NCBI GenBank assembly: GCA_028030915.1
Contig: GCA_028030915.1_4867.1
Length of the DNA stretch: 64,000 nucleotides
DNA from: a phage
Direction: 5' to 3' (one strand)
Numbering within the stretch: position 1 is the first letter of the stretch; the number at the start of each line of letters is the position of its first letter. Shown one piece after another: positions 43,358 through 55,348 of the stretch. A program made the translations under genes and the position numbers. A model generated the notes under the pieces. That model was not told where the DNA came from. It ran no database searches and saw only the letters and a program-made list of their open reading frames with translations.

Positions 43358-43397
43358 ACCGCCCTTCCGTTATTGGGAGGGCGGTCTCCGTTTTATT
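43358..43397 (+). terminator. intrinsic terminator/attenuator between fiber genes (ACCGCCCT...AGGGCGGT, then T-run)
   Basis: Inverted repeat followed by CTCCGTTTTATT; preceded by a second hairpin at about 43323-43354. Confidence 0.45.
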
Positions 43398-43417
43398 ACA
43401 GATTAGGAGTGTTTGCA

Positions 43418-46400
43418 ATGCCGAGAGAAGATGCGGCGCAGTTTAACGGTACCCTCAGTACCGCTACTTACCCGAACCGTTATTCGACGGTCATTCCCGT
43501 CGAAGCACCGTTCTATCGCATCGGGTTAACGTTAACCGTTACCGATAAAGCAACCGGAACCAAACGCAAGTTAATAGAAGGTCTTGATTATTTCTTAGGA
43601 CATTACTTCCAGGAATTAGCCGAGGCTGAGAACGATGCAATATACGGCAGCATAATGCTGCTGAACGCCACAGAGGTAGAATACGAGTTGTTGTCGGTTG
43701 GTCGACAGTATCGCATCCCTGCTTCTGAAATCGGCAAGTATCTGGTTAAGACGGATATGAAAGACCCGCGCAACTGCGATTGGTCTGAGCTGATGAAATA
43801 TCCACCGATTATCTCGCCAATCGACCCGCCAAAAGATCTCGAAGAAGCGATTCTTCGCGATGAAATCGTAAAGGCGTTGGAAGATATCCGTCTGGGTATT
43901 TTAGAGCGCGCCCACGAACTGGATGAGGCATTTGCCGAAGTTACCGATTTGATTTATCAGAACGGTAAGCAGGTGTTTGATGACGAAATGTATCAACACC
44001 ACCTGATTAAAAATGCACATGGTTACACCTGCGGTGACATTGGCGCACTCCCTGTGCTCGGTAAGGCCGTAGATGCGACTAAGGCATTCGGACGTACCCT
44101 GGCAGAGCTAGTGACGTTAATGTCTACCAGTGGCATCCAACAGAAACACGTTGACCTGCTTCTGGATAATACCCTGGGTGATTTACTGGGCCGTATGCGT
44201 GTTCTGAATAACGACGCGATTACGTTCCAAACAACGTCTGGTCACGTTATCAGCATGAAAGGTGAGAAGTTCATCATCACCTCGACAAAACCGCTGGTAT
44301 TAAAAGCTGACCAGGATAACAACGAACCGGGTATCGCTACGGAGTTCAGTGCTGGTCTGAACACGCTTTGGGTTCACTCGGGTAAAGCAGGTGACAAGTG
44401 GGGCGCTTATGATGCAGGTGTGCTTGCACCTGTGTATAACAGCGTGTATCTCGTTACACCGGATATGGTTAAGATGTACTTGACCTCGGTGAAGATACTT
44501 CCAGCAAACGCCTACTTCAAGTCCAGCGACACGTTGAAGATTTACGGCTCTGGTAAAGAAACAAACAAAGTTTACATGAATGCGGAGCTGCCTGCAGCAA
44601 CCACAACTGTGCAGGGTTTGTTTGCGATTACTAACCTCTCGGCATCCGCTGCAGCGTCCACAGCGATTTCCCAAAAAGCTGTTACTGACTTGAAGAACAA
44701 ACTCGACGGATATGTGGACGACACGTATACGGTCAATGGTAAAGGGTTTGTATTAGATTCAAACGGGCAGATGCATCTGACCTTAACCGCGGCAGATTTC
44801 GGTATTGAGAAAATGGACAATACCGGACCGTTAGAAAAGCCTGTTACTAACGCATTGCGTACCGTGCTATCAGGCAAAGCGTTTACATCGCACACCCACA
44901 CCATTGCAGATCTCGATAACGTGCCGTACGCATCCACGTCTGTTACAGGTTTGGCTAAACTGTGGGATGCAATCGACACTACCTCGGATAAGATGGTCAC
45001 TTCGCGCCAAGGCTTCTTGCTTGAACAGAAGATTGACACGCTGAATGACAAGATTGGTACGTTATTACCGGCGTGGACTGTCGGCGGATCATCGTACGGC
45101 AACAATAACTTCTTGCCTATACCAGTCCAGGGGAACTACGAAGGGTATACCAAAAACCAAACCTGGCAGAAAGGTTTGGCGCGTTACGAGTCTGGTAAGG
45201 TTTACTCGCTCCGTAATGGTTCTAACGGGAATCCACCTGGTGACTGGGCTATCTATTACGCTTACGCAGATGTAGCCGCGGATAACACGCTGACGAACAT
45301 GCAGCAGACGTCCGTACGTTACCGCCCCGCTGGAATGTCGGCGTATCCTGGGGTGAATCTGGTTGCTATTGTGATTACCGGTACAGATGCAATGATCTGC
45401 TTAGGCAGTGACGGTGCGTATTACCTGGTCATCTTTGACGGCACCATTGACCATGCAAAACATCATCGTGTTGTTAAAGTTCAGTTGGGCGATTACCGAA
45501 ATGGTAACGCGGCCGGTGTGATTACAACCGCTCCATGGGTTGCCGATCCATCAACAAACGATTTGATCGTTTGCAACGAGCGGGTTTATCTGCTCCGTAC
45601 TGTCCTTACCTCCGGTGACTATTTCGTGAGTATGCGTAGCATCGCACTTGACGAACTTAATCTGGGTGGTAGCAACACGTTTGTGGCGGATGTGTTAACA
45701 GGCGGGATGTTAACGTCGGGAGATAATATCTATTTGCGTCAGGGTCAGAAACGTTCTGATACAGATGTGTTGGTAGCGCCAGTAACACAAATCTACGCAG
45801 ACGCATCGGCGAAGTGGAATAGTGCGCGAAATTTCGTCCATGGTCCGGAATGTAATCACGCGATTGGTGTGGATGGGCTGAACTTTCGTGTTGGTTTAAC
45901 TCCAACGGTTTGGTTTGCTTCTACTACAGGGCAAACTATTAACTTTAAACAATGGGTGTCAAGCTTTGTTGTTGATTGTAGTTCAATGACGATAACGCTG
46001 GAAGGTGCTGATCGATTCCCTATTGTGGCCGATCTTACCACGGTTCGTTATAACGGTGGTGCTGAGATTGGGATTCCGAGCCGGAAATGGGGCGAAGGTC
46101 AAGCTAATAACCGAACCTTTGCAACATCGCAAGACAAGTATATCGTTTCGCAAGGACATGCAGGCGATCGCGACCTGATGCCTTACGTCACGATTACCAC
46201 GTTAGATGACGGTGTGAGTTGGTACGAGTACCTGTCGTGCGACTACAACTTCACTGCCAGAAGTTTTAGTGCGGTAATGTTAAACCAAGGTCGTGGTTCT
46301 ATCTACGAGCTGGGTATGGCGTATCCGCTGACTCTGGGAGCGAATTCCAGACTTATCTGGTTGTCACAGCCGCGTACCCGTTTGGCAATTGAAGTTGAGT

Positions 46401-48601
46401 TTGATCCGAACACCACTTACTCAGGTAAGGCGGGGTACGGCCCAACTAACAATCGTCGTGTGGTGGATTCTACCACGTACGAGAATCTGTCGCAGATGTG
46501 CCACATTGTTACACCGGCGTCGCCTGGTACAGAGTTAAACGGCTGGTATTGCACAGGACCAGAAACATTCCCTTACCACAACGTTTCTGGCACTTTCACG
46601 ATTCATGCCGATCGGTTGACGCTGTCACAAGCTGAATGGGATAAGATGAAGCAGATGATCATCGACGGAGCACCGGCAGGCGCTGCGAATGGTTATGCTT
46701 CGGAATTTATCCTTGCCGCAAATAACGCAGGAAAGGCATTGTTCTCCGTTTGGTTCATCGGCATTGGTACGGCCACACCGCTCACGTTAGCACAAGTAGC
46801 ATGTACGCGTACTGTGAACAACGTTAACGTGTTGGATATCTACTACTTTACACTGAAACCAACAATCAGCAACGGGCAGGTAACATTCCCGGCAGCGATA
46901 TTGGCATTGTTTGACTTCTATAACAACCTCGACTATGGCTTGAACTATGCTACGTTGGGTGAGATAACGGGAGGAAAAACACGCCGGCCGGGACAACCTA
47001 CACTGGTGTCAGTAGATGGTACTCAGTTCGGGTTGTATCTTCCACACACGTTAACCTTGCGCCAAATTGGCGACTTGGGTGCGCTTAACTACGGCGTTGG
47101 TCTTACGCTGTCTAATGGTACCTGGACGCGTTCTTCTGCTCCACACGGCATTGGACGCATGGCACCATCACACACTCCAGTCAGCCCAGCTTATCTGGCT
47201 CATCGTGATCAGGTGATGCTACACAACTCATCTCTCGACTACGTCTATTGTGGTGGTATCGCAATGTCGTCGAGTGATTTTGTCGCGGCTCCTAATTTTA
47301 GTGGCCCGACTGAATCGGTCGTCATTGCTGGTGTGGAAACAGCCGAAGGTTGGCTGGTATATGTGACTGAGGAAGTTGACCTGCGTTTCGGCTCGAGCAC
47401 TTATAAACTGCCTACGTGGTATATTGACCTCAGCGCAGCATTTCCAACAAACCATCAGAACCGGACATTCTACCTGCACGCCAAGGTAGAAAATGGTACA
47501 CCGAAGTACGTAATGGACGTGATTCAACATCCAGACACTGAAACGGAACTCTATATCGGGTATGTTAAAACGGGCTCGTCGCGAGTCGTCGAGACTAACG
47601 TCGAACATGCTAAGCGATTAGGGGCGGTGAAACAACTGTTGGAACATGCGGCGGTTGAGAATAAGCATGATGTGGAGGTGGGAAGGGATGCAGCAACGGG
47701 CAGACTGGCACCATTGCGTAAAGAAGCGATGGGTCCTTTGTCGATCGATGCTACGAAAGGCTATCTGGATAGTCAGTTGCTTTATACCGTATCTGACGCA
47801 CAGCGTCGCGGTAAAGCGATGGTCTCCAAACGTTTCGAAGGCTTGAAAACTTTGCCGGCGTTTACTCAGGCAAACAAGTCGGGGGCGTTTTGGAAACATC
47901 CTACAACAATTGCGACGGTAACGGCCGATGAGAACGGTGAAGCGGCATCGTTGGGAATGGAGTGGGTAGGTATTCCAACGCCCGCTTTCTCACCGACCTC
48001 AACGAACTTGATGGTGGTGGTGCAAAGTAAATTCGTCGTCCCAGGTACACCGGGAGTAGAAACGACCTTTAATGTCCACGTTGCCCCATGGGAGGCGGTG
48101 GATGGCTTTTTCTACAACGTCGAGGCGGAAGGTACGGATGTTAACATTGACGAAAATCCAGAAGTGTTATTGCCGTCACCACATACCGTGCACCACAAAC
48201 AGCACTCTCTGCCAGCAGGCGTGCCGTGCACCTTTACATTTGTCGCGGCGGTAAGTTCTTCAGCGCTCGAAACAGCCAACCAGCATATTTGCTCTTGGCT
48301 TTTCACGGAAGCGGGGGGACTACCAATCACCACCGATCTTTCGGATAGTAAGATTCAAATCTTACCACAGCCGGGAGAAACCTATGGCACTCCAGTTGTT
48401 CTGAACAGTCGTAGCTATACGTTTACGAATGTGGCAGGTGCAATCCCGGTTGTTACCACGGGCGCTCAGGGTTTATTCCCACCACCGATCGTGGCGTGGG
48501 ATGGCGATGATCTTACGTTAACGATTGCGCACGATTGGGTGAACGAGAGAGGACGTCAGCAGCCTGATATTATCCAGGTCAATCTTATGTTCCGTACCTA
48601 A
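43418..48601 (+). CDS. tail fiber protein (1728 aa from the ATG with AGGAG RBS)
   Basis: FTSHTHTIADLDNVPYASTSVTGLAKL fiber motif; shared N-terminal domain (APFYRIGLTLTV...GLDYFLGHY); the track ORF begins upstream at 43373 inside the terminator hairpin. Confidence 0.7.
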   Translation: MPREDAAQFNGTLSTATYPNRYSTVIPVEAPFYRIGLTLTVTDKATGTKRKLIEGLDYFLGHYFQELAEAENDAIYGSIMLLNATEVEYELLSVGRQYRIPASEIGKYLVKTDMKDPRNCDWSELMKYPPIISPIDPPKDLEEAILRDEIVKALEDIRLGILERAHELDEAFAEVTDLIYQNGKQVFDDEMYQHHLIKNAHGYTCGDIGALPVLGKAVDATKAFGRTLAELVTLMSTSGIQQKHVDLLLDNTLGDLLGRMRVLNNDAITFQTTSGHVISMKGEKFIITSTKPLVLKADQDNNEPGIATEFSAGLNTLWVHSGKAGDKWGAYDAGVLAPVYNSVYLVTPDMVKMYLTSVKILPANAYFKSSDTLKIYGSGKETNKVYMNAELPAATTTVQGLFAITNLSASAAASTAISQKAVTDLKNKLDGYVDDTYTVNGKGFVLDSNGQMHLTLTAADFGIEKMDNTGPLEKPVTNALRTVLSGKAFTSHTHTIADLDNVPYASTSVTGLAKLWDAIDTTSDKMVTSRQGFLLEQKIDTLNDKIGTLLPAWTVGGSSYGNNNFLPIPVQGNYEGYTKNQTWQKGLARYESGKVYSLRNGSNGNPPGDWAIYYAYADVAADNTLTNMQQTSVRYRPAGMSAYPGVNLVAIVITGTDAMICLGSDGAYYLVIFDGTIDHAKHHRVVKVQLGDYRNGNAAGVITTAPWVADPSTNDLIVCNERVYLLRTVLTSGDYFVSMRSIALDELNLGGSNTFVADVLTGGMLTSGDNIYLRQGQKRSDTDVLVAPVTQIYADASAKWNSARNFVHGPECNHAIGVDGLNFRVGLTPTVWFASTTGQTINFKQWVSSFVVDCSSMTITLEGADRFPIVADLTTVRYNGGAEIGIPSRKWGEGQANNRTFATSQDKYIVSQGHAGDRDLMPYVTITTLDDGVSWYEYLSCDYNFTARSFSAVMLNQGRGSIYELGMAYPLTLGANSRLIWLSQPRTRLAIEVEFDPNTTYSGKAGYGPTNNRRVVDSTTYENLSQMCHIVTPASPGTELNGWYCTGPETFPYHNVSGTFTIHADRLTLSQAEWDKMKQMIIDGAPAGAANGYASEFILAANNAGKALFSVWFIGIGTATPLTLAQVACTRTVNNVNVLDIYYFTLKPTISNGQVTFPAAILALFDFYNNLDYGLNYATLGEITGGKTRRPGQPTLVSVDGTQFGLYLPHTLTLRQIGDLGALNYGVGLTLSNGTWTRSSAPHGIGRMAPSHTPVSPAYLAHRDQVMLHNSSLDYVYCGGIAMSSSDFVAAPNFSGPTESVVIAGVETAEGWLVYVTEEVDLRFGSSTYKLPTWYIDLSAAFPTNHQNRTFYLHAKVENGTPKYVMDVIQHPDTETELYIGYVKTGSSRVVETNVEHAKRLGAVKQLLEHAAVENKHDVEVGRDAATGRLAPLRKEAMGPLSIDATKGYLDSQLLYTVSDAQRRGKAMVSKRFEGLKTLPAFTQANKSGAFWKHPTTIATVTADENGEAASLGMEWVGIPTPAFSPTSTNLMVVVQSKFVVPGTPGVETTFNVHVAPWEAVDGFFYNVEAEGTDVNIDENPEVLLPSPHTVHHKQHSLPAGVPCTFTFVAAVSSSALETANQHICSWLFTEAGGLPITTDLSDSKIQILPQPGETYGTPVVLNSRSYTFTNVAGAIPVVTTGAQGLFPPPIVAWDGDDLTLTIAHDWVNERGRQQPDIIQVNLMFRT

Positions 48602-48648
48602 CAGATAGCGCTATGGGGCAAGGAAGCCCCAATCAAAGGAGTTTGGCA

Positions 48649-49851
48649 ATGGCCGAAATCATTCATCAGTACCCGCTCGACCTTACCGGGACATTAACGT
48701 CGAACGCCGTTACACGGCGTATTACGTTAGGTTCTGGTAAAGTTAACCGGGCTTTTGCATTTCCTGACGGAGCTTTCTACGCGGATACCTTCCGCTTGGC
48801 AGCTGCGAATAAACCAGGTGTCTACCCGTACAAACGCGGCACAGACTACGAACTGATTTTTGCACATACTGCATATCAGAAAATGACCAAGAACCGCGAA
48901 GTGGTCATGGGTGTGGTGGTAACTAACTCGGCCATTCCTACTGATATCGAGGTCTCTGCGCAAGTCGTTGGTGGTTTTCAGTCTGCGAACGTCGAAGGCA
49001 TCCGACAAGCGATTGCGTCGTTGAAAATTGAAGACCGCGTGGTGGACTTCAAGGATCTTCGAAACGTACCCGATACGTTCCCGTCCGCCCCGACGTATAA
49101 AGACCTTGGCGATATCTACGGTTTTGAGTATATCATTACCGTACTCGCGGGGATTAAAGATGCGATTAACTCCGGCTCTGCAGTACAGCTGGAAGAAATT
49201 AAAGGTATTCTGGATGGTCTGAAAAACGACTTCCTCGACGCCTTAAATACCCACATCAACGCCGAAGGTAACGTACACAATCTCGACATTCATCAGGTTA
49301 ATGGCCTGACGGAGACGGAGATTCGTGCCCTGATTCAAAGTGTACAGACTGCCATTGACGCCACTATCAGAGATATCGGCGACTTAAGAGCAGCAGACAC
49401 GGCATTGGGGCAACGCATCGATGCAATTGTGGCTTCGTTAGCCGCGTGGAACGACCAGCTTAACGTGGTTGCTCAAAATTACCAGAAAATGTCGTTAGCA
49501 TTAGCTAACCTTAATTCTCTGGTGTTGCAATTACAGAAGATGGTTAACGATCTTCAGTCTGCACTGAATGAAACAAATCAGCGTGTCACGGATCTTGAGA
49601 ATCAGGGCAAAGACTTCCAACAGCAAATTGATAACCTGCAAGGACAAATCAACAGTCTTAAAACTCAGGTTGTAAACAACACCAACGCAATTTCGCAGGC
49701 AAACCAGAATCTGGCGAACCATGCGGCTGCGGATAACCCACACCCGAATTACCTCCATAAACAGTATGGCGGTGTTGTGCAGGCTGCTGTTCACGTCAAC
49801 AACAACCTCACCTCGCGCGACGATGTTCAAGCTGAAGCGGGTACTAAGTAA
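48649..49851 (+). CDS. short tail fiber-like protein with coiled-coil (about 400 aa)
   Basis: AAGGAG RBS at the internal Met; shared N-terminal domain (GAFYADTFRL...GTDYELIFAHT); heptad-like Q/N/L-rich segment; NPHPNYLHK motif near the C-terminus. Confidence 0.6.
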   Translation: MAEIIHQYPLDLTGTLTSNAVTRRITLGSGKVNRAFAFPDGAFYADTFRLAAANKPGVYPYKRGTDYELIFAHTAYQKMTKNREVVMGVVVTNSAIPTDIEVSAQVVGGFQSANVEGIRQAIASLKIEDRVVDFKDLRNVPDTFPSAPTYKDLGDIYGFEYIITVLAGIKDAINSGSAVQLEEIKGILDGLKNDFLDALNTHINAEGNVHNLDIHQVNGLTETEIRALIQSVQTAIDATIRDIGDLRAADTALGQRIDAIVASLAAWNDQLNVVAQNYQKMSLALANLNSLVLQLQKMVNDLQSALNETNQRVTDLENQGKDFQQQIDNLQGQINSLKTQVVNNTNAISQANQNLANHAAADNPHPNYLHKQYGGVVQAAVHVNNNLTSRDDVQAEAGTK

Positions 49852-49916: not shown

Positions 49917-50309
49917 ATGGCGATATCTATTAAAGACGTCAGAAACCGCGTCCAGATAGTCGAAGCTAACATGGCGACAGGCCCCCGCATCGAGGCGCAA
50001 GTGGCCTCTAAAGCCCATAATGCGGCAGACCGATTTGGGGGTTGGACGAAAGCACAGCTAGATTGCGGCGGGACATGTTCTTGGACATGCTCTAACGGTT
50101 GCTCGCACGGCTGTTCGAGCTGTTCAGGAAGCTGTTCTGCTTCTTGTATCGGTAGCTGTTCTTCGACGTGTGGCGGTAACTGTTCTGGTTGCTCTGGTTG
50201 TTCTGGTGGTTGCAGTAGTAGCTGTACCGGTAACTGCACAGGTGGTTGCGGTGGCTCATGTTCTTCCAGTTGTTCCGGGGCCTGCTCCGGCGGCTGTTCA
50301 GGTCGCTAA
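49917..50309 (+). CDS. Cys-rich repeat protein A (130 aa): ~49-aa leader-like N-terminus plus a CxxxC repeat tail with about 21 Cys; candidate RiPP precursor
   Basis: ATG with AAGGA RBS; N-terminus MAISIKDVRNRV is paralogous to the next two ORFs; tail DCGGTCSWTCSNGCSHGCSSCSGSC...CSGACSGGCSGR. Confidence 0.6.
   Translation: MAISIKDVRNRVQIVEANMATGPRIEAQVASKAHNAADRFGGWTKAQLDCGGTCSWTCSNGCSHGCSSCSGSCSASCIGSCSSTCGGNCSGCSGCSGGCSSSCTGNCTGGCGGSCSSSCSGACSGGCSGR
50064..50306 (+). repeat. in-frame period-12-nt coding repeat (Cys-Ser/Gly-x-x) within protein A
   Basis: Reiterated TGC/TGT-containing units (e.g. tgttctggttgctctggttgttctggtggttgc); both alternative frames are also open, as expected for a low-complexity repeat. 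Confidence 0.6.
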
Positions 50310-50319
50310 GGGGGATTAA

Positions 50320-50724
50320 ATGGCAATTGGATTAAAAGAACTGAATAACCGATTAAACACGATCGATGCAAACGCTCTAAAGAATACCACGAATGTGCAA
50401 AACTACATTCGCAATAAAGCTACGAATAACGCTGACTTGTTCGCAGGTCAAGGTCGTTCGCACTACGACTGTGGTGGTACGTGTTCTTTTAGCTGCTCAA
50501 GTTGCTCTGGCGGCTGCACAGGATCTGCGACAGGTGGTTGTGGGTCGACTTGTTCGGCAAACTGTGTATCAGGCTGTAGCAGCAGCTGCACGGGCTGTAG
50601 CTCTTCGTGCTCTGGTGGTTGTAGCGGCACGTGCACAGGCAGCTGTTCTGGGGGTTGTGGTAAATCCTGCTCCGCAAACTGCTCAGGTGCGTGCTCTGGT
50701 GGTTGTTCAGGTCCTAACTCCTAA
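50320..50724 (+). CDS. Cys-rich repeat protein B (134 aa): leader-like N-terminus plus a CxxxC repeat tail with about 20 Cys; candidate RiPP precursor
   Basis: ATG with GGGGGA RBS; MAIGLKELNNRL leader paralogous to A; tail begins YDCGGTCSFSC and ends CSGACSGGCSGPNS. Confidence 0.6.
   Translation: MAIGLKELNNRLNTIDANALKNTTNVQNYIRNKATNNADLFAGQGRSHYDCGGTCSFSCSSCSGGCTGSATGGCGSTCSANCVSGCSSSCTGCSSSCSGGCSGTCTGSCSGGCGKSCSANCSGACSGGCSGPNS
50470..50721 (+). repeat. in-frame period-12-nt coding repeat (Cys-Ser/Gly-x-x) within protein B
   Basis: Same repeat style as in A; alternative frames open. Confidence 0.6.
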
Positions 50725-50739
50725 CTGACGGAGGCTTAT

Positions 50740-50946
50740 GTGATCAGTCTCAAGACTATTCGAAACCGTCTCGTTACGGCAGAAGGTTACATTACAACCG
50801 CACAGGCAAACAACTATATCGCTAACCAGGGCACCGTGTCGACCACAAATAACCTGGCTGGCTTACCGCTTTCTCACTATAACTGTAATGGTGGGTGTAG
50901 CTGGTCCTGCAGCGGAAGCTGTAGCCGTGGAGCGGGGAATCGATAA
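50740..50946 (+). CDS. Cys-rich short paralog C (68 aa, GTG start): leader-like N-terminus plus a short CNGGCSWSCSGSCS core
   Basis: GGAGG RBS 5 nt before GTG; MISLKTIRNRL leader matches A and B; core starts YNCNGGCSW, like the start of the A and B cores. Confidence 0.5.
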   Translation: MISLKTIRNRLVTAEGYITTAQANNYIANQGTVSTTNNLAGLPLSHYNCNGGCSWSCSGSCSRGAGNR

Positions 50947-50968: not shown

Positions 50969-51856
50969 ATGAAAAACGATTTGCATCTTGCGTATAAAAC
51001 CACATTCAACCACCCGCTGCATCTATCTTCCCCAGATTCAGTGCGTGCACACCTTGCTGACAAAGTCAGACTGATTGCACAGATTCCTGGTGAGTGGCCA
51101 AAGGTTCGTGGTCGCTTCTTGACCGACAAGAAGAACTACACCGTAGAAAATACGTTTAAGATCCGTGATATGGTTGCAGAGGCCATCGTTATCTTTAACG
51201 GCGATGGTAACTCTCGTGGCGTGTTAGTCGACGGTAAGTATTTCTTCAGTGAAGGGATTTTGAACAACAGCGTCGATTTAGAACTGATGTTTACACCGTT
51301 TGACGAACTTGAAGCAAAACCGATGGCGCGCCGTTGGTGGAGTCCGGACTATCTGGGCTCGTTCCCTTACTACTTTGTACTGGTACCTGCCGATACGGAA
51401 ACGTATTTCGACACCGAACCATACATCGATATCGAGGGGTATAAAGAACTCGGCATCACCCGTTTAGCGGACATGATGGCGTATAGCTATAAGTTCGTGT
51501 GGGATAAAAAGCGTTCTGTCTGGTATGCACTGACTGACGATTTCGAAATCACCAAACGTATTCGTAAACCGTGGATGCAACATCTGGTTCAAACCCGATA
51601 TGGGGATTATCCGGCGACGGAAGCGGATTTGAGTAAGCTGGTAAGTTTCCTCTTAACGAAGGTGGATTTAACGAAAGAAGAAGCAGAAGCTGTTTCTGAG
51701 ATTCGTGGTCGTTCGGTAACGTTGGCCGATTTGAAACGCCTGAACGAAAGACACGCCGACCTGAACAAAATTTTAGCTGCCTATCACGACCCGATGTTAC
51801 TGGTGCCCGGCGCTAATGTAGACGAAGATCCTTTATTCGCCATTGATTATATTTAA
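50969..51856 (+). CDS. hypothetical protein (295 aa) within the Cys-peptide/radical-SAM cluster
   Basis: GGAG RBS; no recognised motif; lies between the precursors and the rSAM genes. Confidence 0.5.
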   Translation: MKNDLHLAYKTTFNHPLHLSSPDSVRAHLADKVRLIAQIPGEWPKVRGRFLTDKKNYTVENTFKIRDMVAEAIVIFNGDGNSRGVLVDGKYFFSEGILNNSVDLELMFTPFDELEAKPMARRWWSPDYLGSFPYYFVLVPADTETYFDTEPYIDIEGYKELGITRLADMMAYSYKFVWDKKRSVWYALTDDFEITKRIRKPWMQHLVQTRYGDYPATEADLSKLVSFLLTKVDLTKEEAEAVSEIRGRSVTLADLKRLNERHADLNKILAAYHDPMLLVPGANVDEDPLFAIDYI

Positions 51857-51878: not shown

Positions 51879-52793
51879 ATGACAGATCAAGTAGAATCCA
51901 GGATCTCGTCTGAACTGTACGACAAACCGTCAATTCTGTCGGTTGTCGCAACTTCTAAGTGTAACTTAGACTGTAGCTTCTGTGGAGGGGCTTATTACAT
52001 GGATAGAGAAGATACTTCTCGTGAGTTTCAACGTGAAGAGATTCTCTCGATTTTAGAGAAGAATCCGGATATCGGTGAGATTCATTGGACGGGCGGTGAG
52101 CCGCTGTTAGCGCAGCGCAAGATTGAAGACTTCGTGAACGAGTTGAAGGAGTCTCATCCGAACCTCCGTCATCACATGTACACCAACGGTTTAAAGATGC
52201 GTAAATCACATCTGCCGTTGCTGAAACAGTTCGACCTTATCTTTGTGTCCATTGACGGCTACAAGAAGTCGGAACGTCCGTTTATGAACTTTGTAAACGG
52301 TGGTAATCATGAAGCGCTGGAAGTGCTGTACGAGCTGGACAACTATTACACCTGGGGTGTGATGACGCGTGACCAGTTAGGTGATAAACGCTGGTACGAA
52401 GATTTCATCGAGCTGCACCGAGCAATCTATCATTACCGTCCAGGTGGGATGTCGTTGCTGTTTGATGCGATGATGCCGAAACCGTTATCGCCAGACCACG
52501 TCATGAACTTCATGTACGGGTATTGGAAAATACTCGACAATATCGAACGCCTTAACATGCAGAACGATTCTGAATGTGGGCTTGCGATCAGTAAAATGTT
52601 CGATACCGAGTGCAACACGTGCAGTGAAGTTCTGTGGCTTAACGCCGACGGTACGCAGGAGCAAATTCAGAACGCCCCAGAGATATTGGAAGTCGGCTGT
52701 AATCGCCTGGCGCGTTCTATCGGCGTTGATGCGTATAACTACATCAACCGTGTAATTTCTGCTAAGCGTAAACGGGCGGCGAACAATGAGTAA
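51879..52793 (+). CDS. radical SAM enzyme (about 305 aa) with short Cys-containing C-terminal extension
   Basis: CNLDCSFC (C-x3-C-x2-C) near the N-terminus, WTGGEPLL, YTNG, SIDG; C-terminal ECGLAISKMFDTECNTCSEV...GC; GGAG RBS before the ATG at 51879 (the track ORF starts at an upstream TTG). Confidence 0.7.
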   Translation: MTDQVESRISSELYDKPSILSVVATSKCNLDCSFCGGAYYMDREDTSREFQREEILSILEKNPDIGEIHWTGGEPLLAQRKIEDFVNELKESHPNLRHHMYTNGLKMRKSHLPLLKQFDLIFVSIDGYKKSERPFMNFVNGGNHEALEVLYELDNYYTWGVMTRDQLGDKRWYEDFIELHRAIYHYRPGGMSLLFDAMMPKPLSPDHVMNFMYGYWKILDNIERLNMQNDSECGLAISKMFDTECNTCSEVLWLNADGTQEQIQNAPEILEVGCNRLARSIGVDAYNYINRVISAKRKRAANNE

Positions 52794-54114
52794 CAGCGAA
52801 CAGCAAATCCAGTACACACCACGCACATATCAGGTCGTGACTAACTTGTCATGTAACCTGGACTGCGAATACTGCTACGAGCGTAAATACCCACGCAACA
52901 ACAAAGTAGCTGACGTGATTGATTTTATCCACGCTTGCTTCGAGCGTGATAAAGATATCCCGAACGTTGAAGTCATCATCGATATCATCGGTGGTGAGCC
53001 GTTCATGCAGCCTAAACTTCTTTTGGCGGCCTTTGAAACCGCAGAGAAGTTATGTGCAGAACACAATCGCCCGTATATGTTCAGTATCTCCACGAACGGT
53101 ACGCTTCTGGACCGTCCGCTGAACAAAGAAATTATCGAGCGCTGGAAAGACAAACTGTCTATTGGGGTCTCCATCGATGGTTTACCTGAAATCCATGACA
53201 AATATCGTATCTTTACCACGACGCGTGAAGGGTCGTACGAAGCTGCGGTACGCGGTTACAATTACCTGAAGAGTGTTGGCATCGCTGAGCTGGGCGTAAA
53301 GGCGACGTTTACGATCGATACATTGCCGCACTATGCCGCCAGCATGAAATCGTTAATTGACATGTCCGGCGGTGGTACCATTTCTGGTAACGTAACGTAC
53401 GAAGATATCCTGCCGCGCCATATGGCGTTGGATATCGCGAACCAGATGATGGACGTGATGGACTACTGGATTGAGAAGGGTCTGCACACCAACCCGCGTA
53501 ACACGATTACGCACATCATCCCGGATGGCCTGAACTTTATGGCAACTTGGGACCCGGATTGGCGTGACAAACTCTTACATGACGACTCTGTTCGTCTCGA
53601 CCCAGAACGCCTGAAACCGTACTGCGGTACGTTGACGCACATGACCTGTCTCGGCTTTGATCGCAAGATTTACGGTTGTAACCGTTTCATGTCCACGGTA
53701 ACTTCCCGTTCTGCTGTAGCAGAACTGGTCGGTCGTGAGTTTGTGAGCCTGGACGGTGGTAAGCTGTTAGAAGAGATTCAAACGCAGTACACCAACTACC
53801 CAGAAACCTGTTTAGGGTGTCCGATGAAACACAGCTGCGGTAGCTGCGCAGCAGCATCGTACGAAAACGGTGAAGGTACACTGGAAGACCGTAAAGCGTA
53901 TCACGCCGAGCGTCGTCAGTGTGGTTGGACTACTGCGAAGCTGATGGCGGCGGAATATTGGTATCAGAAAACTGGTACGACCCGCGCATCAGATTTGCAC
54001 GATAAATCCATGTGCTATTGTTCACGTTGTGTACGCCAACGTGCTGAAGCAGAAAAATTACAAAACGGAGCCCAGAATGAAGTCAATACTGATTCACAAT
54101 TTTACGAAGCGTAA
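52786..54114 (+). CDS. radical SAM enzyme with SPASM-like Cys-rich C-terminal domain (442 aa)
   Basis: CNLDCEYC (C-x3-C-x2-C), GGEPF, STNG, SIDG; C-terminal cysteine cluster CGTLTHMTCLGFDRKIYGCNRF...CLGCPMKHSCGSCAAASY; start overlaps the upstream rSAM stop by 8 nt. Confidence 0.75.
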   Translation: MSNSEQQIQYTPRTYQVVTNLSCNLDCEYCYERKYPRNNKVADVIDFIHACFERDKDIPNVEVIIDIIGGEPFMQPKLLLAAFETAEKLCAEHNRPYMFSISTNGTLLDRPLNKEIIERWKDKLSIGVSIDGLPEIHDKYRIFTTTREGSYEAAVRGYNYLKSVGIAELGVKATFTIDTLPHYAASMKSLIDMSGGGTISGNVTYEDILPRHMALDIANQMMDVMDYWIEKGLHTNPRNTITHIIPDGLNFMATWDPDWRDKLLHDDSVRLDPERLKPYCGTLTHMTCLGFDRKIYGCNRFMSTVTSRSAVAELVGREFVSLDGGKLLEEIQTQYTNYPETCLGCPMKHSCGSCAAASYENGEGTLEDRKAYHAERRQCGWTTAKLMAAEYWYQKTGTTRASDLHDKSMCYCSRCVRQRAEAEKLQNGAQNEVNTDSQFYEA

Positions 54115-54643
54115 ACTGCACTTGGTCGATCGCTTCCTGCGCAAAAGCAAGCTGTACAATGTGCACGCAATTGTGGCAGGGGAAGACTTCACTGATGAAA
54201 TCCAAAGCCTGTTGATTAAATACGGGCTGAATGTGATGATCCCGGTCTACTGCGTTGAGAAAGGACACGAGTCTGTCGCGGAAATCGAAAAGCGCAACCC
54301 TGGCTTTGAGAAGCGACTGCTTGCATACCCACGCCACAAAATCGAACTGCTACGACACTCTATTGATGAAGCCAGTCCTGAAAGTTTAGTGGCATTGGGC
54401 TTGTCTTTCCCGCGGATGCGTATTCGTAACTTACGCTCCAATAACCCGGTTGACGCTTATTACACAGAGCGTCAAATCTTCGAAGAACACCTGCTCCCGC
54501 AGTTGGAAGAAGAAGAGCAACACAACATTTCTCTGTTGTGGGCCGGTAACCTCGATCAGGACTTCCAGATGCTGGACTTCGGTTTGTTGTTAGAACTTGG
54601 CCTGATTGAGGAGGACGAATGTCTGTTACTGACAAAAGCTTAA
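54077..54643 (+). CDS. hypothetical protein (188 aa from the internal Met with GGAG RBS)
   Basis: The track ORF starts at 54029 inside the rSAM gene; the Met at 54077 has an RBS but still overlaps the rSAM 3' end by 38 nt. Confidence 0.4.
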   Translation: MKSILIHNFTKRKLHLVDRFLRKSKLYNVHAIVAGEDFTDEIQSLLIKYGLNVMIPVYCVEKGHESVAEIEKRNPGFEKRLLAYPRHKIELLRHSIDEASPESLVALGLSFPRMRIRNLRSNNPVDAYYTERQIFEEHLLPQLEEEEQHNISLLWAGNLDQDFQMLDFGLLLELGLIEEDECLLLTKA

Positions 54644-55290
54644 CGAACGAAGAGATCCGCGCCCGTTATTTCCAGCGTGATTTGCCGATTGATCGTCACG
54701 GTAATTTCATGGAACGAATCGGTGCGCAGGATCAGGGCCGTACCGGATTTTGTGCATTACTCCATTACCATCTCATCGAAGGGATGTCTGATAAAGAAGC
54801 CCTGGCACGCATGAAGCTGTATGAGATGTCGGAGATTGAAGCTAACTTCACATTGAAACGCACGAAAGAGTTTATTGCTAATGTGCTGGAGATTGACCTC
54901 GACGAAATTCGCGGGAATCTGAAATCTACCGCACGTTACATTTACGAAGACGTGCAGAAGATGCTGTTGGAACTCGACCACCGCTACGAAGATGAGCGCC
55001 ATGGTTATATCGAGTTTGAAGGTAGTCACTTTCAAGCCGATGAATCGTCGCGTACCATCCTCGGTCAATACATTCAGGCAGATACCGCACCAGAATACTG
55101 GCTCGATACGCTGAATACTAAGCACAGTCCGTTTACAGTAGCCCAATGTAAAGCGTTGCTGGCCGCTATTGTTGCACGTGACCAAGTGTTGCACTCAGCA
55201 ATGGCAGATAACAAACGCCAAATCCGTGAGTTAGCTGAAAAGCGCGATTACACTGGATTAAAAACATTGTCCGAGTCACTCGGCATGTAA
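54619..55290 (+). CDS. hypothetical protein (223 aa), last gene of the cluster
   Basis: ORF overlapping the previous gene by 25 nt; followed by a strong terminator. Confidence 0.5.
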   Translation: MSVTDKSLTNEEIRARYFQRDLPIDRHGNFMERIGAQDQGRTGFCALLHYHLIEGMSDKEALARMKLYEMSEIEANFTLKRTKEFIANVLEIDLDEIRGNLKSTARYIYEDVQKMLLELDHRYEDERHGYIEFEGSHFQADESSRTILGQYIQADTAPEYWLDTLNTKHSPFTVAQCKALLAAIVARDQVLHSAMADNKRQIRELAEKRDYTGLKTLSESLGM

Positions 55291-55302: not shown

Positions 55303-55348
55303 AAGGCCCTACCTCCCCGAAGGGAGGTAGGTACCTTTTATTTATTTC
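55303..55348. terminator. bidirectional intrinsic terminator (CCCTACCTCCC-CGAA-GGGAGGTAGG, then T-run)
   Basis: Inverted repeat between convergent genes 54619..55290 (+) and 55372..55899 (-). Confidence 0.6.

Follow-up and report, generated by a model that had tools for sequence, protein, structure and literature searches.

Two tandem radical SAM enzymes beside Cys-X3-repeat proteins in an SPN3US-like jumbo phage: a probable tail-fibre maturation cassette

A radical SAM operon in a phage fibre module

Two radical S-adenosylmethionine (SAM) enzymes are encoded in tandem in a 64,000-nucleotide (nt) stretch of phage DNA (GenBank assembly GCA_028030915.1, contig GCA_028030915.1_4867.1), the whole of which is hereafter called the window, and they are preceded by three small proteins containing Cys-X3 repeats. 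The first enzyme, rSAM1 (304 residues), is located at 51879..52793 and the second, rSAM2 (442 residues), at 52786..54114, both on the plus strand like the other genes of the operon; 0.9–2 kb 5' of the pair, on the same strand, lie the open reading frames (ORFs) for Cys-X3-repeat protein 1 (130 residues, 49917..50309), Cys-X3-repeat protein 2 (134 residues, 50320..50724) and a short Cys-repeat paralogue 3 (68 residues, 50740..50946). We favour the view, to which we assign a probability of about 0.6, that the rSAM pair are maturases of the tail-fibre module which modify these three upstream proteins.

With 98–99% identity, the region matches the SPN3US-like jumbo phages of the genus Seoulvirus, among them Salmonella phages SPLA5c and SPN3US and Proteus phage 7. 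In SPN3US numbering rSAM1 is gp164 and rSAM2 is gp163, with gp165 upstream and gp162 and gp161 downstream. The ATG of rSAM1 at 51879 has a GGAG Shine-Dalgarno sequence 8 nt on its 5' side, an in-frame TTG at 51843 being judged a less likely start, and its stop codon ends at 52793; the rSAM2 ATG at 52786 lies within the overlap ATGAGTAA, so that 8 nt are common to the end of rSAM1 and the start of rSAM2, as an earlier reading of the DNA from its sequence alone (the sequence-only reading) had noted. At the rSAM2 stop (54114), that reading gave an overlap of 25–38 nt with the next ORF. The larger figure is correct for the translationally coupled gene of the gp162-like protein (188 residues, 54077..54643, plus strand; phrog_7988), whose ATG is preceded by GGAG, while the smaller one belongs to the following junction, at which the gp161-like DUF4376 protein (223 residues, 54619..55290, plus strand; PF14301, E 1.4e-9) has GAGGAGG 5' of its ATG and shares 25 nt with gp162. 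This last gene of the operon is followed by a strong bidirectional intrinsic terminator at 55308..55331, a perfect, GC-rich hairpin with a 10-bp stem, 7 of whose pairs are GC, and T-rich tails on both strands, which separates the fibre-maturation operon from the convergent gp160 gene; gp160 is an abundant head protein in SPN3US.

On the 5' side, the fibre module begins with the gene of a gp168-like giant baseplate/tail-fibre protein (43373..48601, plus strand), whose SPN3US orthologue was identified by mass spectrometry as a tail protein of the virion (PMC5105663; PMC5694885 Supp. Table 1). It is followed by the gene of a gp167-like coiled-coil virion fibre protein (48613..49851, plus strand; phrog_2163 'virion structural protein', E 1.5e-108), which stands directly 5' of the Cys-repeat ORFs throughout the jumbo-phage group, a position kept in 15 further jumbo-phage loci; in SPN3US, gp167 was seen in virions with 70% coverage (PMC5694885 Supp. 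Table 1). The gene of the gp165-like accessory protein (295 residues, 50969..51856, plus strand) lies between the Cys-repeat ORFs and rSAM1, and no strong terminator is predicted between these ORFs and rSAM1. A sigma-70 promoter scan of the region was uninformative, giving fewer matches than shuffled sequence; a jumbo phage of the SPN3US type has its own RNA polymerase, and a poor sigma-70 signal is thus expected.

Two different enzymes without a recognition domain of their own

Both proteins belong to the radical SAM superfamily, with Pfam Radical_SAM (PF04055) scores of 58.6 bits for rSAM1 and 56.2 bits for rSAM2 against a cut-off of 29.5. The CxxxCxxC motif, C28/C32/C35 in rSAM1 and C23/C27/C30 in rSAM2, is conserved in the respective family alignments and lies in both enzymes within 35 residues of the N-terminus, in agreement with the sequence-only reading. 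In a profile-profile comparison the two align over the radical-SAM core only (profile columns 13–203), at 19% identity, and they are therefore different enzyme families, as had been proposed.

In rSAM2, eight C-terminal cysteines are conserved (C280, C288, C298; C342-x2-C345-x5-C351-x2-C354; C379) in an alignment of 21 homologues reaching down to 26% identity, seven of them invariant and C288 present in at least 90% of the homologues. The arrangement corresponds to the SPASM pattern Cx9-15Gx4C ... Cx2Cx5Cx3C ... C, through which SPASM enzymes bind two auxiliary 4Fe-4S clusters, with a final spacing here of x2 instead of x3. Furthermore, the rSAM2 family profile matches the thioether-forming maturase CteB (PDB 5wgg) with an E of 2.7e-39 over CteB residues 103–448, which span the core and the SPASM region, and matches anSME with an E of 1e-18 from residue 14 through the SPASM region, so that the SPASM-like domain suggested earlier is borne out. 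The best NCBIfam match is TIGR04115, 'radical SAM peptide maturase, CXXX-repeat target family' (E 3.3e-36, 125.5 bits), followed by the PapB family (NF047865, E 9.8e-33); by its sequence relationships, rSAM2 is a divergent sister of the TIGR04115 family. An extra Cys cluster beyond SPASM, CYCSRC, is found at about residues 425–431; C-terminal clusters of this kind (CYCSRC, CxxCxxxxC and similar) are present in rSAM2 and its jumbo-phage relatives and absent from shorter relatives such as a Deferribacter protein and metagenome sequences.

The match to anSME raises the question whether the same substrates might undergo another chemistry: rSAM2 could act like anSME, converting Cys or Ser to formylglycine or making some other non-thioether product, or the repeats could bind metal or form disulfides that the two enzymes only tune. 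In fact, anSME is the second-best solved relative, it is a SPASM enzyme with eight cysteines in its SPASM region and no RiPP recognition element (RRE; RiPP, ribosomally synthesised and post-translationally modified peptide), as is rSAM2, it acts on a full-length protein and not on a leader-bearing peptide, and the X positions of the repeats are rich in Ser. However, the similarity is weak: the CteB match is better by about 20 orders of magnitude, the anSME model TIGR03942 gives 57.6 bits against a cut-off of 349, and the repeats lack C/S-x-P/A-x-R, the target motif of anSME. We consider such a chemistry unlikely.

In rSAM1 the C-terminal Cys region is shorter, as the sequence-only reading held: only three cysteines are conserved in the family alignment (C245, C248 and C274), a fourth, C231, being present and not conserved. 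Its AlphaFold2 model (predicted local distance difference test score, pLDDT, 88.4) places a beta-hairpin at 251–262 between the conserved C-terminal cysteines, and Foldseek returns CteB as the best match (E 8e-12, template modelling score, TM, 0.61), then SuiB, viperin, TigE and anSME; over the whole model, CteB, SuiB and anSME are moderately similar to it (TM 0.5–0.6). The C-terminal Cys region is covered by no hidden Markov model in the Pfam and NCBIfam scans. We infer that the core of rSAM1 is of peptide-maturase type and that its auxiliary site is reduced and twitch-like. Its family is tiny and uncurated: a profile search among 1.84 billion sequences found 16 representatives at E<=1e-30, matches past about 30 full-length relatives were to the generic core alone, and the full-length relatives occurred only in the cassettes described here. 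Among its few homologues, those that have a named source or lie on a long contig belong to SPN3US-like jumbo phages. In SPN3US, gp164 is annotated 40 codons late (window 51999..52793), whereby the CxxxCxxC motif is lost, and several related phage records are alike. In some jumbo relatives an extra rSAM1 paralogue is located between or directly after the Cys-repeat ORFs (L020 5543..6454; L003 1865..2830), giving three radical SAM genes; the rSAM1 copy number may track the substrate paralogues.

With no specific family assigned to rSAM1, it could instead be unrelated in function to rSAM2 and merely share its operon, for example as a viperin-like nucleotide-modifying or a metabolic enzyme. Matches to viperin were indeed obtained with Foldseek (E ~1e-9) and, for prokaryotic viperin (pVip), with PADLOC (E 2.4e-13, core only). 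However, this similarity is that of the generic core, over profile positions 10–115 of 262, CteB is the better structural match, an rSAM1-like gene accompanies rSAM2 in all of 27 related loci, twice as a fusion, and the small family is found at full length in these cassettes alone; an unrelated function thus appears highly improbable. An identification as pVip, for which a full-length match including the C-terminal nucleotide-binding part would be expected, was discarded; the model NF038283 also scored only 44.7 bits against a cut-off of 180. A role in defence or counter-defence was likewise rejected, PADLOC having given only generic-core pVip matches.

Neither enzyme has an N-terminal RRE, a PqqD-like winged-helix domain of about 85–100 residues. 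In CteB the RRE occupies the first ~100 residues; the rSAM2 profile alignment begins at CteB residue 103, so this part has no counterpart in rSAM2, and at anSME residue 14, confirming the absence that the sequence-only reading had deduced from the position of the motifs. This is no peculiarity of the locus: the TIGR04115 and PapB-family models, like anSME, also begin at the radical-SAM core. Leader recognition in trans had been suggested, by the 295-residue or the 188-residue protein, and the two candidates fare differently. A gp165-like protein co-occurs with the rSAM pair in 26 of the 27 loci of the window's clade and is a plausible trans-acting partner; its predicted structure is a confident model that matches no known fold, and gp165 is therefore not an RRE. 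The gp162-like protein occurs in the 16 jumbo-type loci and in no others, and thus falls outside the conserved core of the cassette. The gp161-like protein is also restricted to the jumbo group; it has a weak match to phrog_2837 'tail protein' and is possibly a tail-fibre assembly factor. Sequence comparison with the PDB gave no matches for gp162 and gp161. A 224-residue protein of locus L022, considered as a gp165 homologue, was dismissed after no homology was detected.

Cys-X3-repeat proteins and their relatives in phage tail modules

The three upstream ORFs encode an N-terminal part of about 50 residues followed by C-x-x-x repeats, for example CGGTCSWTCSNGCSHGCSSCSGSC. In Cys-repeat protein 1, an N-terminal region of about 49 residues precedes 21 cysteines spaced mostly by 4 residues. 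Protein 1 matches phrog_6085 (E 1e-40) and the target-repeat model TIGR04114 (E 8.9e-4, 19.6 bits), protein 2 has matches to the same two families, and paralogue 3 matches phrog_6085 (E 2.7e-24); the TIGR04114 scores of the upstream ORFs, 19.6 and 17.1 bits, fall just below the cut-off of 20. Paralogue 3, present in public protein sets only as a 'hypothetical protein', keeps just the first motif, CNGGCSWSCSGSCS, and is equally short in L008, L009 and L003; this motif, C-x-G-x-C-S-W-x-C-S-G-S-C-S, may be a minimal unit of recognition or modification.

These ORFs have been overlooked in the SPN3US records (JN641803, NC_027402), which omit the first and the third and call gp166 over the second in a frame that lacks the cysteines (window 50393..50728); the omission and the mis-framing are repeated in several related phage records. 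In comparison with four relatives of 63–83% identity, however, the Cys frame has 72–88 changes at the third codon position against 17–39 at positions 1 and 2, and synonymous changes exceed non-synonymous ones, indicating purifying selection; the genuine reading frame is therefore that of the cysteines. Across loci, cysteines of the repeats are spaced by 4 residues in 84% of cases and by 3 in 15%; G, S and T together account for 72% of the X residues, and Asp for 4.6%.

A scan of IMG/VR revealed 465 viral relatives of rSAM2. In 81 loci (78 from IMG/VR, with the SPN3US copy left out, plus a Deferribacter locus, one metagenome contig and the window), mostly on viral contigs, a Cys-repeat ORF adjoins the rSAM2 relative in 78, and the window itself has the adjoining Cys-X3-repeat protein that characterises the TIGR04115 family. 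Most often the repeats make up a C-terminal domain in a larger protein; such proteins have 250–940 residues in other phages and contain up to 92 cysteines in relatives. In L023 the repeat protein carries an N-terminal Phage_tail_fib domain (E 1.8e-40), and the genes next to the repeat and maturase genes encode GpJ, tail sheath and Baseplate_J/Tail_P2_I proteins. A Cys-repeat protein of L031 (10085..11635) has an N-terminal RCC1-repeat beta-propeller (E 2.5e-27), which suggests that the repeat module has been added to protein domains of various kinds. A similar arrangement is found in the genome of Deferribacter abyssi, apparently in a prophage, where an rSAM2 homologue with 39% identity lies 3' of a GpJ-like tail gene in the order GpJ-like tail protein, further ORFs, a 302-residue protein, gp165-like, rSAM1-like and rSAM2-like protein, the last two accessory matches having E values of 2e-9 and 1e-14; the 302-residue protein contains phage-tail-type repeats (a weak Pfam match) and a C-terminal CXXX domain with 28 cysteines.

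This distribution bears on whether the locus is a natural-product cluster, in line with the RiPP framing of the sequence-only reading. In a conventional phage RiPP system the small ORFs would be precursors with a leader of about 50 residues cut after G-G or A-G, the rSAMs would cross-link the core, and the freed peptide would serve as a toxin, a signal or a metal chelator. The small proteins (68–134 residues) do share a conserved N-terminal region that ends in FGG, FAG or LAG before the repeat, and the nearest characterised enzymes, CteB and PapB, are RiPP maturases. However, no peptidase, protease or exporter was recognised in the operon in the Pfam, NCBIfam and PHROG scans. Moreover, the motif at the junction of the two parts, N-A-D-x-L-x-G-x5-Y-(Y/H)-x-C-x-G-x-C-S-W-x-C, occurs both in the small proteins of SPN3US type and in the single chains found in other phages, and in the long tail-module proteins the form N-A-D-x-L-x-G-x5-Y-Y-x-C lies in the middle of the chain, where no cleavage is needed. 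The fibre domain of the L023 protein and the spread of the cassette over four types of tail module also speak against it, and we regard a conventional RiPP as quite improbable. Of the earlier interpretation, the peptide-maturase-like character of both enzymes is retained and the RiPP framing is given up: given the tail-module context of the repeats, the substrates appear to be tail-fibre proteins, and the locus is probably a tail-fibre maturation cassette.

In the window's clade a second rSAM adjoins in 27 of 27 loci, in varying gene order and either way round. Two independent single-chain fusions of rSAM1 and rSAM2 were found, in L029 (8137..10197, 686 residues) and P0098 (634 residues), each with two CxxxCxxC motifs and each in a cassette that also carries a gp165-like protein; the P0098 fusion is preceded by a 570-residue protein with a faint precomputed tSAM_targ_Cxxx_rpt match and by a 221-residue protein. 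A few kb 5' of the fusion gene, the P0098 contig (ENA ERZ1426824) has genes for a further radical SAM protein and for a TROVE/Ro60-vWA protein. Since the pairing recurs in all 27 related loci and is twice fused, it is not due to chance, and the natural fusions, as Rosetta-stone evidence, argue for joint action of the two enzymes on one substrate. The earlier suggestion that they might act on different precursors is accordingly unlikely, the pair being kept also in L002, in which only one Cys-repeat ORF was detected.

The clade is set apart from the curated TIGR04115 family. Its members score 125–157 bits with that model (L002, L022 and L024, 148–157), outside the family, whereas the distant viral relatives L036, L069, L032 and L043, of 24–28% identity, reach 386–434 bits and pass the cut-off. 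True TIGR04115-type viral loci, which occur in P2-like and other tail modules, have one rSAM and a conserved protein of about 193 residues, and lack both the second rSAM that the window's clade always has and the gp165-like protein that it nearly always has. The ~193-residue protein is encoded between the Cys-repeat gene and the maturase gene in 30 loci (L031–L085, e.g. L052 8039..8614 and L036 8267..8809), and the maturases of these loci have an N-terminal extension of 40–70 residues. The possibility that it is a relative of gp165, gp162, gp161 or rSAM1 was discarded, there being no match even at E<=10.

Proposed maturation of tail fibres and its implications

The closest computationally known system is thus TIGR04115/TIGR04114, the best NCBIfam match for rSAM2 and the upstream ORFs, in which an RRE-less SPASM radical SAM enzyme likewise adjoins tandem Cys-X3-repeat proteins; to our knowledge, its chemistry is uncharacterised. 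Among characterised enzymes, the ranthipeptide maturases CteB/Tte1186 (SCIFF) and PapB (freyrasin) also have a radical SAM core with a two-cluster SPASM domain and Cys-rich substrates with regular Cys spacing. They differ in that the first ~100 residues of CteB have no counterpart in rSAM2, that their substrates are short secreted peptides and those of the window type are long and, in relatives, attached to tail-module proteins, and that a second rSAM would be needed here; substrates of the PapB family carry Cys-X3-Asp/Glu motifs, whereas Asp is scarce among the X residues of the present repeats. Another pair made of a SPASM-type and a smaller radical SAM enzyme, encoded with a repeat-containing target, is HxsB/HxsC of the His-Xaa-Ser system; both rSAMs match it weakly (45 and 75 bits against cut-offs of 268 and 370) and its repeats are different, so the likeness is an architectural analogy only.

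In the mechanism that we propose for the maturation of tail fibres, rSAM1 and rSAM2 would form an obligate pair acting, most likely, on the three small Cys-X3-repeat proteins whose genes follow that of gp167. rSAM2 would be the core enzyme, using SAM, the radical-SAM cluster and two auxiliary SPASM clusters to remove hydrogen from a carbon of the backbone or of a side chain, to which the sulfur of a nearby cysteine would then be bonded. Repeated along (C-x-x-x)n, thioether formation would give a ladder of small rings and hence a rigid fibre tip resistant to reduction and proteases. rSAM1, with its single three-Cys auxiliary site, may carry out a second chemistry in complex with rSAM2, or prime the first motif, C-x-G-x-C-S-W-x-C, and the gp165-like protein may serve as a subunit for docking or as a chaperone in place of the RRE that the enzymes lack. 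The S–C thioether links are suggested by the relationship of rSAM2 to CteB and PapB together with published work on PapB and Tte1186, which form thioether cross-links and in which the substrate contacts the auxiliary cluster directly (PMC10177961). Mass spectrometry of SPN3US virions detected gp167, gp168, gp169 and gp170 and did not detect gp161–165 (PMC5694885 Supp. Table 1), which is consistent with the latter being enzymes and chaperones that are not packaged.

Several points weigh against this explanation. The data establish the anatomy of the genes, their motifs and homologies, the co-conservation, the fusions and the tail-module context, whereas the thioether chemistry, the substrate assignment, the division of labour and the incorporation into virions are what we infer; in addition, the Cys-repeat ORFs could not appear in the SPN3US virion proteomics because, being unannotated, they were not in the search database. 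The Pfam scan of rSAM2 gave no SPASM-domain family at E<=0.1, and rSAM2 stays below the curated cut-offs of TIGR04115 (125.5 against 350 bits) and of the PapB family (113.8 against 340). The second-best solved relative, anSME, likewise without an RRE, performs an oxidation and not a cross-link, and the ~50-residue N-terminal part of the small substrates, with its G-G or A-G end, is readable as a RiPP leader. Finally, gp167 showed no homology to the N-terminal portions of single-chain fibre-repeat proteins (those of L030 and L022), and the docking of the small proteins on gp167 as a 'split fibre' is therefore suggested by gene order only.

More broadly, it is conceivable, though we would hold it only tentatively and at somewhat less than even odds, that in unrelated tail types (jumbo myoviruses, P2/Mu-like myoviruses and lambda-like siphoviruses) radical SAM/SPASM enzymes turn Cys-X3 domains at the fibre ends into thioether-laddered, non-reducible structures, so that RiPP-type machinery would covalently modify virion proteins with a receptor-binding or structural role, and that the window's clade needs for this a complex of two rSAMs and a docking protein of novel fold in place of an RRE. 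In the literature searched, we met no account of phage tail fibres being modified by radical SAM enzymes, nor of the CXXX-repeat system, and, to the extent of these searches, no enzyme-made modification of such a kind in a virus particle; the cassette represents a new, two-enzyme form of the CXXX-repeat maturase system that is known from computation, and its tail-fibre context appears unreported. In a giant phage, eight radical SAM genes in a structural cluster have been called 'highly unusual' (PMC12390700).

If the proposed role in fibre maturation is correct, radical chemistry of the RiPP type would extend beyond small secreted peptides to the covalent hardening or shaping of virion tail-fibre proteins, and, judging from the number of viral relatives, would be apparently widespread. 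This would provide a function for the 'puzzling' radical SAM genes in the structural clusters of giant phages (e.g. PMC12390700), as well as a class of substrates and an RRE-independent mode of recognition for the CXXX-repeat maturase family. Annotation errors in the SPN3US records have hidden the candidate substrates from proteomic searches; SPN3US is genetically tractable, with amber mutants and published virion proteomes, and the idea is directly testable there. Fibre stability or host recognition would then depend on a new factor, the thioether-laddered repeats, which is relevant for phage engineering.

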